Assembly (NCBI GenBank): GCA_017525875.1
Contig: JAFXSG010000048.1
Span: forward strand, 1,856-65,855
From: Clostridia bacterium
Lineage (GTDB): Bacteria > Bacillota > Clostridia > Christensenellales > CAG-138
Direction: 5' to 3'
DNA length: 64,000 nucleotides
Below, one piece after another: positions 23,319 to 26,341 of the stretch; position 1 is the first letter of the stretch; every line of letters starts with the position of its first letter. A program made the translations under genes and the position numbers. The notes below the pieces were generated by a model, which was not told the origin of the DNA, did not search any database, and worked only from the letters and a program-made list of their open reading frames with translations.

Positions 23319-23347
23319 TTGCACGGCGCTGTTTTCTATGCTATAAT
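23319..23347 (+). promoter_or_regulatory. Sigma-A-type promoter of the small-ORF/ncRNA/RT cassette
   Basis: TTGCAC (23319-23324), 17-nt spacer, TATAAT (23342-23347). Confidence 0.6.
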
Positions 23348-23368
23348 GGCCGCAAAGGAGGTGTTTTT

Positions 23369-23875
23369 ATGAGCATTTTTTCCAAGATCATTAAAAACAT
23401 AGTCAATGCAGTGGAGCAGCAGGCAAATGAGCTGAAGCCCGAAAAGCCCGAGAAGCCGTCCAGCGTAACTATCGGAGGCATGACCATCGGCGGCGGGCAC
23501 GTTGACAACGTGGTCTGCGACGCTCCCGAAAGCGGCTTCTCCTGGGGGCCGAATATGCCCGCCGAGGAGAACCAGTTCAACTATAAAGGCACCTATAAGC
23601 AGTATTTTGAGAACGTTTTCAAAGAAGCGTTCCCCGAATACGGGATCGTCCGCACGGATCTTGAAAACCGCGACGCGTCGACCTTCGCCTTCTTCATGGG
23701 CGAAACCAAGGTACTGGTCGTGGAGGTCATGAGCGACCGCAGCAGCGCTCAGAGGATCCGCCGCGAGTGCAGGGCGAACGGTATCCGCTATCTGCGCTAT
23801 TACCACAACCACCACGGCTGGTGGAACACCAAGGCCTACGTTATCGAGCGCACGGGGAATGCGCTGAACGGCTGA
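23369..23875 (+). CDS. Hypothetical 168-aa protein upstream of RT (candidate accessory/effector)
   Basis: AAAGGAGG RBS 8 nt before the ATG at 23369, so the longer 22994 start is rejected. No family recognised. The C-terminal half (TFAFFMGETKVLVVEVMSDRSS..RIRRECRANGIRYLRYY) vaguely resembles small endonuclease-like folds (weak inference). Confidence 0.7.
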   Translation: MSIFSKIIKNIVNAVEQQANELKPEKPEKPSSVTIGGMTIGGGHVDNVVCDAPESGFSWGPNMPAEENQFNYKGTYKQYFENVFKEAFPEYGIVRTDLENRDASTFAFFMGETKVLVVEVMSDRSSAQRIRRECRANGIRYLRYYHNHHGWWNTKAYVIERTGNALNG

Positions 23876-23887
23876 GGTTCAATTCGC

Positions 23888-24030
23888 AAAAACAGAAAGA
23901 GAACGCATTGCGCCTGCGGCGGGTCCGGCACGGGTCGTATGTATATGTGCTTCGCAGGCAGCCTGCCCGTGTACGATCTTGTACGGCCCAATAATTAATT
24001 GGGCCTTTAAGGATTTCTCTTTCTGTTTTT
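23888..24030 (+). ncRNA. Candidate structured RT-associated non-coding RNA (retron msr-msd-like / DRT-type template RNA)
   Basis: A perfect 16-bp inverted repeat, AAAAACAGAAAGAGAA (23888-23903) / TTCTCTTTCTGTTTTT (24015-24030), encloses 111 nt. The enclosed segment has internal hairpins: GCAGGC-A-GCCTGC at 23954-23966, and GGCCCAAT-AATTA-ATTGGGCC at 23985-24005. It lies between a stop codon and the RT start. Confidence 0.45.
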
Positions 24031-24060
24031 CTTATGCAAAAAACACGATCCGAGGCAAGC

Positions 24061-25302
24061 ATGAGCCTTCTTGACAGGCTGAAAGACCCTGCCGAATGGC
24101 AGTCGTTTTATGAATACAGGTGCGCGCGGCATCTCCCGAAGCAAAAGGCGCGGGAGCTTGCTTCGTTTATCGAAAACAAAGAATACCTGCCGGTTTGCGA
24201 GCGGATCCGCTCCGGCGCGCGCTTTCCCCTGCCGAAAAAAACGGTCATAAGCAAATCCGGTTCAAGCAAGAAGCGCGTTGTGTACACCTACCCACGCGCC
24301 GAAAACAACGTGCTGAAGCTTTTAACGCACCTGATCCTGCGCAAGTACAACGGCATATTCGACACGGGGCTTTATTCCTTCCGCCCCGGGCGCAGCGCGA
24401 AGGACGCCGTCGAAAGGCTGATGCGCATCCCGTGCATCGGAGAGATGTATTCCTACAAGGCGGATATCAGCAATTACTTCAATTCGATAGACATTTCGCT
24501 GCTGCTGCCGCTTCTCGGCGGGGAAATGGCGGACGATCCGGAGCTGCTTGCGTTCCTCAGGGCACTGCTTTCGGAGCCGAACGTGCTTTTTCGTGGGGAG
24601 GAGCTTTGTGAGCAGAAGGGCATCATGGCCGGCACTCCGCTCGCGTCGTTCTTTGCGAACCTGTTCCTGAGGGAACTCGACCACCGCTTTTACGAGCACG
24701 GGGCGATCTATTTCCGCTACTCGGACGACATCATCGTTTTCGCGCGGACGCCCGAGCAGCTTGCCGAATACGTTGAAGAGATCAAGGCTTTTCTCTCTAA
24801 AAAGCGCCTCGCGATCAACCCGAGCAAGGAGTTTTACAGCCGCCCCGGGGAAAAATGGACGTTCCTCGGTTTCTCCTACCTGAACGGCAAGGTGGACATC
24901 GCTCCCGTGTCGGTCGATAAGATCAAGGGCAAGATGCGGCGCAAGGCCCGCGCGCTCACCCGCTGGCAGCAGCGCAGGGGGCTCGGCGGAGAGAAGGCGG
25001 CGAAGGCGTTCATCCGCGTTTTCAACCGCAAGCTTTTTGAATACACGGACGAAAACGACATGACGTGGACGCGCTGGTTCTTCCCGGTCATCTCCACCGC
25101 CGAAAGCCTGCGTGAGATCGACCGCTACGCAGAGGACTGCATCCGCTTTATCATCAGTGAAACGCACACGAAAGCCAGATTCAACGTCCGCTATGAGGAT
25201 ATGAAAAGGCTTGGTTTCCGCAGCCTCGTGCACGAATACTACGCCTCGATCGCCAAGCCCGAAGAGGCGAAAACGCCGCCCGAGGGGGAAGATCCGGCGT
25301 AG
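24061..25302 (+). CDS. Stand-alone reverse transcriptase (group II intron-like palm/fingers, no intron ribozyme)
   Basis: RT motifs: KRVVYTYPRAENNVLK (1), YSFRPGRSAKDAV (2), YKADISNYFNSID (3), GIMAGTPLASFFANLFL (4), YFRYSDDIIVFA (5, YxDD box), and LAINPSKE..WTFLGFSY (6/7), followed by a thumb-like C-terminus. The ATG at 24061 is preceded by GAGG; the alternative ATG at 24034 has no RBS. Confidence 0.85.
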   Translation: MSLLDRLKDPAEWQSFYEYRCARHLPKQKARELASFIENKEYLPVCERIRSGARFPLPKKTVISKSGSSKKRVVYTYPRAENNVLKLLTHLILRKYNGIFDTGLYSFRPGRSAKDAVERLMRIPCIGEMYSYKADISNYFNSIDISLLLPLLGGEMADDPELLAFLRALLSEPNVLFRGEELCEQKGIMAGTPLASFFANLFLRELDHRFYEHGAIYFRYSDDIIVFARTPEQLAEYVEEIKAFLSKKRLAINPSKEFYSRPGEKWTFLGFSYLNGKVDIAPVSVDKIKGKMRRKARALTRWQQRRGLGGEKAAKAFIRVFNRKLFEYTDENDMTWTRWFFPVISTAESLREIDRYAEDCIRFIISETHTKARFNVRYEDMKRLGFRSLVHEYYASIAKPEEAKTPPEGEDPA

Positions 25303-25400: not shown

Positions 25401-25477
25401 GGGGATGTGGCTCAGCTGGTTAGCGCGCTTCGCTCACATCGAAGAGGTCGGGGGTTCGAGTCCCTCCATCCCCACCA
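25401..25477 (+). tRNA. tRNA-Val (anticodon CAC), CCA encoded
   Basis: Folded into a cloverleaf by hand: acceptor GGGGATG/CATCCCC; anticodon stem CTTCG/CGAAG with loop CTCACAT; T arm GGGGG-TTCGAGT-CCCTC; discriminator A plus CCA. There is one D-stem mismatch. Confidence 0.85.
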
Positions 25478-25536
25478 AAAAACAAGAGGTCCATTTGGGC
25501 CTCTTGTTTTTTGCATTATATAAAAGGGACTCGAAG
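25478..25536 (+). repeat. 59-bp direct repeat, copy 1 (includes the tRNA terminator hairpin)
   Basis: AAAAACAAGAGGTCCATTTGGGCCTCTTGTTTTTTGCATTATATAAAAGGGACTCGAAG, identical to 26283-26341. Confidence 0.9.
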
Positions 25537-25641: not shown

Positions 25642-25661
25642 GAGTCCCTCCATCCCCACCA
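25642..25661 (+). repeat. Duplicated 3' end of tRNA-Val (att-like scar)
   Basis: GAGTCCCTCCATCCCCACCA, identical to 25458-25477. Confidence 0.85.
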
Positions 25662-25791
25662 TCAAAGAAACCTCTTTTGTCTACTGGGGCAAAAGAGGTT
25701 TCTTGTTGATTCATACACATACTTGCTTGATAACGAGGCAAAAAAACAGTATAATATTTGCAGATCGTTGTGCCGGAAGGAGAAATACGAT

Positions 25792-26226
25792 ATGGGGATT
25801 TTAATGAGGAATACATCGAATTACTCTGCGGGCGAAATCTTTTATTACGTAAGTAAAAAACGGATGTTTGGCTGCGTAATCCTGTTTCAACAGCAGGATT
25901 ATTATTTGATTGCTCTTTCAGAAGAGATTACGAAAACAACGAAGGATATTTGCTGCGATGATGTTCTCCAATCGGCCCTTTATACACTTGCATGGTATTC
26001 TGATGTTGAGATGCTGCTGCCTCACAGACTGCACCGACTCGGAACAATACCCCTTACCGCAGATTATACGAATCGTGCAGGATTGTTGATTGATGATCAA
26101 GGAATAATCCTGAAGAATGTTGGGCAAAGCGGAACGTGGACACATACATACCGTTCCTTCGCTCTCCGTGATGTAAAAGTAAAGAATGTTCTGGACACGA
26201 AATATGTACCGAAAACGATACGGTAA
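25792..26226 (+). CDS. Hypothetical protein in low-GC islet
   Basis: GGAAGGAG RBS. The DNA is visibly AT-rich compared with its surroundings, and the gene is flanked by the 59-bp direct repeats. No family recognised. Confidence 0.6.
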   Translation: MGILMRNTSNYSAGEIFYYVSKKRMFGCVILFQQQDYYLIALSEEITKTTKDICCDDVLQSALYTLAWYSDVEMLLPHRLHRLGTIPLTADYTNRAGLLIDDQGIILKNVGQSGTWTHTYRSFALRDVKVKNVLDTKYVPKTIR

Positions 26227-26282: not shown

Positions 26283-26341
26283 AAAAACAAGAGGTCCATT
26301 TGGGCCTCTTGTTTTTTGCATTATATAAAAGGGACTCGAAG
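26283..26341 (+). repeat. 59-bp direct repeat, copy 2
   Basis: Identical to 25478-25536. Confidence 0.9.

Follow-up and report, generated by a model that had tools for sequence, protein, structure and literature searches.

Positions 23319-25302 of a 64,000-nt stretch of Clostridia bacterium DNA (contig JAFXSG010000048.1; the whole stretch is called the window, and all coordinates are positions within it) contain a typical copy of an already catalogued three-part system, composed of a small accessory protein, a non-coding RNA (ncRNA) of about 143 nt and a reverse transcriptase (RT) of the UG26 group. The family identity of the three parts (UG26 RT, RTasCOG2852 protein and RT-5 RNA) is almost beyond doubt, and the evidence leans towards their forming an intact single operon. 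The earlier note on this DNA had proposed a possibly undescribed unit, a label that has to be given up: the RT is UG26, the small protein is its known associate (PMC9226505), and the RNA is the Rfam motif RT-5 (PMC5737381). New here are the connection of RT-5 with UG26, a covariation-supported outer helix and pseudoknot, the near-constant three-part layout, and evidence for the RNA as a partner of the RT rather than a leader of its gene. The arrangement described in that note, a 168-aa open reading frame (ORF), a 185-nt gap (23876-24060) and a 413-aa RT with a YSDD box, was recovered in full, as follows:

23369-23875, + strand: accessory ORF, 168 aa, with a strong AAGGAGGTG site preceding the start
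23888-24030, + strand: ncRNA of about 143 nt, consisting of the RT-5 core and an outer closing helix (Rfam RF03026 and R1, a covariance model built in this analysis with the closing inverted repeat, or clamp, included)
24061-25302, + strand: UG26 RT, 413 aa (PADLOC RT_UG26, E 7.5e-173)
23319-23347, + strand: putative operon promoter, TTGCAC (23319-23324), 17 nt, TATAAT (23342-23347)

The RT_UG26 profile match spans positions 1-395 of 398. The next-best RT families in PADLOC were UG27, UG17 and UG28, and every other score was far below that of UG26 (UG27, E 1.2e-28; UG17, 2.4e-26; Drt9, 1.4e-23; Drt2, 4.2e-18; the generic RT model, 1.7e-31). The best PADLOC retron RT model reached only E 1.3e-18. 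The NCBIfam models for group II maturase, Drt2, Drt3a and retron St85 RTs all scored far under their cutoffs (Drt2, 63.5 vs 390; retron_St85_RT, 50 bits vs 235), and TIGR04416 gave 106.9 bits vs a cutoff of 300. These scores agree with the earlier description of a non-retron RT. The only Pfam domain in the protein is RVT_1. An ATG further upstream in the same frame (24034) lacks a ribosome-binding site, and alignments with relatives begin at residue 1 of the 413-aa protein.

The RT carries the YSDD catalytic box at residues 220-223 (24718-24729), together with the strings FRPGRS and FLGF. Its AlphaFold2 model (mean predicted local distance difference test score, pLDDT, 90.4) matched over the whole chain the group II intron RT GsI-IIC with a template modeling (TM) score of 0.72-0.74, G2L4 with 0.69 and DRT9 with 0.64-0.66, and among solved structures the group II intron RTs and G2L4 came closest in both sequence and fold. 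The group II-like impression given by the strings is therefore correct, since the fold superposes on GsI-IIC RT over its full length. As is the trait of class 2, the RT is unfused, and the alignment of its 413-aa model with a stand-alone group II RT runs from one end to the other. An intron ribozyme, which the earlier note had thought absent, was indeed not found: the Rfam scan of the window returned no intron family at gathering score, and its sole intron-like match (E 0.11) lay on the wrong strand inside the ORF. The catalytic residues are all invariant among relatives, and with the complete fingers-palm-thumb fold of the model, the enzyme appears active. The conserved region closes with LVHEYY, followed by a variable tail. 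Because priming in DRT10 starts at a C-terminal Ser or Tyr that is conserved, Y394 (95% conserved) is a candidate primer; it might be the priming residue, and we treat it as a lead only.

An Rfam search of the gap, as suggested in the earlier note, identified the RT-5 family well above its gathering score: RF03026 matched 23908-24018 with 77.7 bits (gathering score 45.7 bits) and covered model positions 1-104 of 104. R1 scored 135.6 bits at the window and 109-150 bits in loci outside its training, and the single-sequence fold z-score of the ncRNA was -4.4. We examined the pairing in two alignments, one made with MAFFT (25 sequences) and one guided by the model (32 sequences, including six loci outside the training set). 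The following elements were resolved:

23888-23903, + strand: clamp 5' arm, AAAAACAGAAAGAGAA, half of a perfect 16-nt inverted repeat
23912-23918, + strand: pseudoknot 5' strand, GCCUGCG, pairing with CGCAGGC at 23953-23959 in the P1 loop
23920-23980, + strand: long hairpin P1 (Rfam consensus), whose apical loop carries CGCAGGC (23953-23959)
23986-24004, + strand: short hairpin P2 (Rfam structure), followed by an invariant UUUAA (24006-24010)
24015-24030, + strand: clamp 3' arm, TTCTCTTTCTGTTTTT, the other half of the inverted repeat

The 16-bp inverted repeat reported earlier is present, with arms that are 100% complementary and enclose 111 nt, and it is kept in relatives. It occurs at the same place in nearly every locus, commonly as AACAGAAAGAGAA / UUCUCUUUCUGUU, and is thus not a chance feature. 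Both sides were changed in 12 of its 16 pairs with 92.9% of cells paired in the model-guided alignment (31 distinct sequences), and in 11 of 16 pairs in the MAFFT alignment. Compensatory versions of the clamp included GGGAG/CUCCC in L002 and L022 and CGGGG/CCCCG in L003 and L009, with further ones in L012, L007 and L034. Judged by this covariation, the inverted repeat is a real outer helix, which is absent from the Rfam model because that model stops inside the 3' arm. The 7-bp pseudoknot joining the 5' single strand to the P1 loop is likewise supported by the alignments: 97.6% of its cells were paired, and two independent compensatory double changes were seen, from C-G to U-A in L023 and L024 and from U-A to C-G in L015 and L025. 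Both sides were changed in 9 of the 13 pairs of P1, whose apical length differs among relatives, and in 5 of the 6 pairs of P2 (model-guided alignment). For the whole structure 90.8% of cells were paired and 31 of 46 pairs were changed on both sides; slid controls gave 36-52% paired, and none of 500 shuffles reached the observed value. Covariation thus shows a fold in which the outer 16-bp helix closes a junction with P1, P2 and the 7-bp pseudoknot. The invariant unpaired bases include the GC of ACGC just past the 5' arm, GUA at 23971-23973, GU at 23981-23982 and the UUUAA after P2, while the A at 23983 is nearly invariant.

The RT has 2950 relatives at E <= 1e-20, mainly in metagenome assemblies of rumen and gut Clostridia. 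We retrieved 30 genome loci of these relatives, 26 of which have upstream DNA, and added four contigs found via protein search and three found by the RNA pattern alone, the only loci returned by a metagenome scan with that pattern. In 24 of these 26 genome loci RT-5 is found immediately upstream of the RT, and it is also present in the four contigs found via protein; the three contigs found by the RNA pattern carry the RT or the accessory gene wherever DNA is available. Counted over the 33 loci with upstream DNA (32 relatives and the window), the RNA is present in 32 and the accessory gene in 28 (27 of the relatives plus the window). The core claim of the earlier note, a dedicated structured RNA with an inverted-repeat clamp upstream of the RT and a co-inherited small protein, therefore holds across relatives, and orthologous RTs carry both the upstream structure and the repeat whose absence that note had named as refuting it. 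The three parts stay joined in a compact cassette, with a different genomic neighbourhood in each host. Each genome yielded one copy, which argues against a proliferating retroelement.

Several loci depart from the common order. In L005 (5793-6393) the accessory gene and the RNA, still side by side, are found downstream of the RT on the other strand, and in L034 (5568-8001) five genes, two GNATs among them, separate the RNA from the RT, which follows 2.3 kb further downstream. L023 and L024 have no accessory gene and show an extended -10-like element, TGGTATATAAT, some 15 nt ahead of the 5' arm, which puts the 5' end of the RNA close to the clamp.

The accessory protein matched PADLOC RTasCOG2852 with E 5e-56. 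It starts with a conserved N-terminal amphipathic motif (MGLFSKLFG), followed by a disordered linker and a conserved C-terminal domain of alpha-beta-beta-beta-alpha-beta topology (AlphaFold2 pLDDT >90 for residues 60-168), and its invariant residues include E119 and W151-W152-N153. The MGLFSKLFG-type start (23369-23395) resembles the membrane-binding start of PspA/IM30 proteins, and this motif might target the protein to the membrane. The topology of the C-terminal domain fits a restriction-endonuclease-like fold, for which Pfam, PDB sequence and Foldseek searches gave no significant support: Pfam on 49 members and the PDB sequence search returned no match, and the best Foldseek hit against the PDB had E 0.04, with the nucleases EcoT38I and EndoMS among the weak matches. 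We take the COG2852 label to derive from a Vsr-like or DUF559 PD-(D/E)XK nuclease annotation. No link to DUF559 or Vsr emerged via Pfam, PDB, Foldseek or profile search. E119 is the sole invariant residue in the expected nuclease strand, where a conserved D or K is absent. The profile search, which covered 1.84 billion representatives, returned a small and closed family of 229 representatives, and the word orphan used earlier for this ORF no longer applies. Some relatives in this set (among P0241-P0245, P0343 and P0358) have two or three tandem copies of the domain (379-433 aa), and others are fused to an N-terminal zinc ribbon.

The promoter proposed in the earlier note, TTGCAC-17-TATAAT, does sit ahead of the accessory ORF, with a weak -35 element. 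A consensus scanner left it unlisted because the -35 matches at only 3 of 6 positions. Direct reading of the sequence placed a TG one base ahead of the -10, and 23319-23347 is plausibly an extended -10 promoter.

We propose that the RNA would be released from the operon transcript, or, at loci without the accessory gene, transcribed from a promoter of its own, and that the RT would bind it and copy an internal segment into complementary DNA (cDNA). In such a ribonucleoprotein (RNP), the outer helix, P1, P2 and the pseudoknot would form a protein-binding scaffold and set the template boundaries, and the accessory protein would act either as a cofactor needed for cDNA synthesis, like the UG27 accessories, or as an effector under cDNA control. 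As the product we would guess first at either a defined cDNA of short length or a short tandem repeat, rather than a never-ending gene like that of DRT2. We favour an RT-RNA particle that copies a segment of RT-5 because the tested class 2 relatives DRT2, DRT9, DRT10 and UG27 use ncRNA templates, and by this analogy the UG26/RT-5 RNP probably carries out RNA-templated cDNA synthesis. An anti-phage defence role is the weakest step of the proposal, with chances that we put at about even.

An A-B-A' search of RT-5 found three short direct-repeat patterns (GCG-CCU-GCG, GUAC-N6-GUAC and UUU-N6-UU), which prove nothing because all lie in conserved sequence. It is a tentative and rather unlikely possibility that UG26/RT-5 makes a cDNA of a kind not yet seen among bacterial RTs, with a new effector or cofactor. 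One candidate product would be a tandem repeat of 10 nt, with the invariant GUAC-N6-GUAC past the stable upper P1 stem as its template, and another a single short cDNA bounded by the clamp. If such a new kind of cDNA were made, the outer helix and pseudoknot could form a core like that of telomerase RNA (closing helix, pseudoknot and boundary stem), the alpha-beta-beta-beta-alpha-beta protein, still an orphan by fold, would be the new effector or cofactor, and priming from Y394 might apply.

Some observations weigh against a three-part defence RNP. L004 consists of the RT alone. A distant AT-rich branch of UG26 (L038-L041, short viral-labelled contigs of IMG/VR; 32-36% identity, RT_UG26 E 4e-93) has a different 116-aa upstream ORF with almost no gap and gave no RT-5 match; RT-5 may therefore be limited to a single sub-branch of UG26. 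In the accessory protein the D and K of a PD-(D/E)XK site are missing, and no fold match was significant. The template could not be located from sequence, as nearly all unpaired positions of the RNA are conserved, unlike the variable template loops of DRT10. No experimental work on UG26, RNA or cDNA data included, was found in the literature searched, and the defence association of UG26 was rated inconclusive (PMC9226505). Finally, the neighbours in the window and in four other genomes are housekeeping genes without defence matches.

One alternative is that the same RNP serves a cellular role other than phage defence, be it DNA repair or another host function, as for G2L4, or that of a mobile element. 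Such a role would suit the housekeeping neighbours of the five inspected genomes, with no PADLOC matches nearby, the inconclusive defence score of UG26 (PMC9226505) and the proximity of the RT fold to G2L4 (TM 0.69), and UG27, the nearest family, is itself phage-borne without an assigned role (bioRxiv 10.64898/2026.09.22.753630). However, the cassette is unlike a core housekeeping gene, being non-syntenic and, in the window, of lower GC than its flanks, and its distribution is patchy, with one copy per genome and only in some genomes; moreover, the tested chromosome-borne class 2 UG RTs are all defence systems (PMC12632851). We consider a non-defence role unlikely, if worth keeping in view.

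Two further alternatives concern the RNA itself. If the system worked as a retron, the clamp would correspond to a1/a2, a conserved G beside the 5' arm would prime through its 2'-OH, and the resulting branched RNA-DNA, a multicopy single-stranded DNA (msDNA), would control the accessory protein as a toxin. The conserved closing helix does join the RNA ends as in msr-msd, an invariant GC (G22 and C23 of the A3 alignment) lies two bases past the 5' arm, and the three-part layout includes a small effector-like protein. However, the hairpin beside the 3' arm has only 6 bp, whereas the retron msd stem at this position is much longer; in the tested relatives DRT9 and DRT10 priming starts at a protein residue and not at RNA (PMC12632851); and the RT is not a retron RT, by the NCBIfam and PADLOC scores given above (50 bits vs 235; E 1.3e-18 vs 7.5e-173). 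The RT clade makes a retron mechanism unlikely for UG26/RT-5, and we give the whole retron-like reading a very low probability. The least credible alternative, with hardly any weight, is that the RNA is a cis-acting leader only, which attenuates the RT gene or regulates its translation and is never used as a template. At most loci the RNA does lie in the 5' untranslated region of the RT, and its U-rich 3' arm stops 30 nt short of the start codon of the RT. A purely cis-regulatory role is contradicted by L005, with its RNA on the other strand downstream of the RT, and by L034, with its RNA 2.3 kb and five genes away; where RT and accessory gene are separated, the RNA stays with the accessory gene and not with the RT. 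The very strong sequence conservation, which extends to the pseudoknot, and the use of RNA as template by all the tested relatives (DRT2, DRT9, DRT10 and UG27) also argue against a leader. The template-bearing RNP remains the reading that we prefer.

The genomic context gave a mixed picture of the setting described in the earlier note, a defence-island-like locus with tRNA scars and a low-GC islet. The genes around the cassette are, by Pfam, spoIIR, ispE, three lipoprotein-like genes, a tRNA, and genes for a membrane protein, a flavodoxin, a GNAT and a PAP2 protein; PADLOC returned no match for the eight neighbouring window proteins, and the idea of a defence island was dropped. Four other genomes showed four unrelated and mostly housekeeping neighbourhoods, with one exception, a ZorA-like protein near L036, and no synteny of relatives with the window flanks was found. 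The GC content of the cassette is 0.50-0.59 vs 0.60-0.67 in the upstream flank. Given the lower GC and the shifting neighbourhoods, the cassette looks horizontally acquired and portable, outside any defence island. No close relatives were found in cultured phages or plasmids, where all matches were <31% identical, and the RT-5 pattern was absent from IMG/VR. A search for flanking direct repeats around the RT cassette found none. In the window, tRNA-Val(CAC) lies at 25401-25477, 98 nt past the RT stop, and a tRNA gene adjoins the cassette in 7 of the 30 genome loci (L001, L003, L009, L015, L025, L006 and L027; Arg-CCT three times, Val-CAC and Leu twice each), the window being the eighth case, which hints at preferred insertion near tRNA genes.

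The tRNA scars and the low-GC islet are both real, but they lie downstream of the tRNA, where the scars bracket a separate insertion and not the RT cassette. A perfect 59-nt direct repeat (25478-25536 / 26283-26341) corresponds to the stretch directly behind tRNA-Val, terminator hairpin included. Its two copies bracket an insertion of 805 bp and low GC (0.42-0.44) with an orphan 167-aa ORF (25723-26226), which had no Pfam or PADLOC match. Positions 25642-25661 are an exact 20-nt copy of the tRNA-Val 3' end (25458-25477), 184 nt downstream of the original, and look like an att-type scar of an integrated element. Elsewhere in the window, an FMN riboswitch (Rfam RF00050, 100.1 bits) was found at 2852-2983 on the + strand.

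The class 2 UG RTs tested so far all differ in how they make DNA from a small RNA; UG27 makes short hairpins. UG26/RT-5 is common in rumen and gut Clostridia, and the tested class 2 UG systems in the literature searched include none from there. The present analysis provides the RNA boundaries (23888-24030), a covariation-supported fold, evidence for the RNA as a partner and a near-constant accessory protein, and it ties the unexplained Rfam motif RT-5 to a named RT family, UG26. The tentative reading with a new kind of cDNA would, if true, add a product type new among bacterial RTs as well as a new effector or cofactor.

Compared with known systems, the locus is neither a retron nor a group II intron, and it is not DRT2 either. 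Like retrons, it has an inverted repeat that closes the RNA (a1/a2 there; a 16-bp helix with 12 covarying pairs here) and a layout of RT, RNA and small protein, a likeness of architecture only, as the RT falls outside the retron clade and the RNA architecture differs. With the group II intron RTs (GsI-IIC) and G2L4 it has in common the FRPGRS and FLGF strings of the RT, but it lacks the intron ribozyme domains, and the RNA partner is a 143-nt RNA, not an intron.

DRT10, DRT9 and DRT2 are likewise class 2 UG RTs with a dedicated ncRNA template, and DRT10 is also a three-part system. DRT10/UG17 makes protein-primed tandem repeats from an A-B-A' template loop of its ncRNA after a boundary stem-loop (PMC12632851), and the same source describes rolling-circle copying that builds a gene for DRT2 and a homopolymer of poly-dA for DRT9. 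All three belong to other RT families (PADLOC E 1e-18 to 1e-26 vs 1e-173 for UG26). The accessory protein of DRT10 is a SLATT protein, unlike that of UG26, and RT-5 lacks the loop poly-U tract reported for the DRT9 template, although the DRT9 RT fold matches that of the window RT (TM 0.64-0.66). A DRT2-like never-ending ORF was tried and rejected for the clamp-enclosed RNA boundaries: in the concatenated clamp-enclosed RNA, read on both strands, only 12 of 25 units had a length divisible by three and the rest had stops in all frames.

UG27 reverse-transcribes the central hairpin of pseudoknotted ncRNA units of about 150 nt into short cDNAs and requires its accessory proteins (bioRxiv 10.64898/2026.09.22.753630). 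It resembles the present system in its YSDD box, in RNA units of about 150 nt that combine a main hairpin with a pseudoknot, and in small accessories without known domains. UG27, however, is phage-borne, with two accessory proteins and arrays of sequence-diverse RNA units, whereas UG26 is chromosomal, with one accessory protein and a single sequence-conserved RNA. R1 found no match in the probable UG27 loci L042-L048, and the motifs that mark start and stop in UG27, AUCN7UANAG and UUYA, could not be recognised in RT-5 in the arrangement expected of them.

Among the closest precedents are two catalogued families. RT-5 belongs to the motifs RT-1 to RT-19 that adjoin RT genes, for which Weinberg et al. 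(2017, PMC5737381) guessed membership in retrons or diversity-generating retroelements (DGRs). The window RNA, as there, matches the full-length model beside an RT gene; its partner here is a UG26 RT vs the speculated retrons and DGRs, and no paper linking RT-5 to UG26 was found in the literature searched. In the definition of Mestre et al. (2022, PMC9226505), UG26 is a class 2 UG/Abi group with 35 members, 9 of which adjoin a COG2852-annotated protein (cluster 1531); no RNA was described there. The window RT agrees with this group in its full-length family match, the lack of a fused domain and the COG2852-annotated small protein. It differs from that description in how constant its partners are, with the accessory in 28 and RT-5 in 32 of 33 loci vs 9 of 35 and no RNA there, and sequence databases now contain thousands of relatives, mostly from rumen and gut Clostridia.

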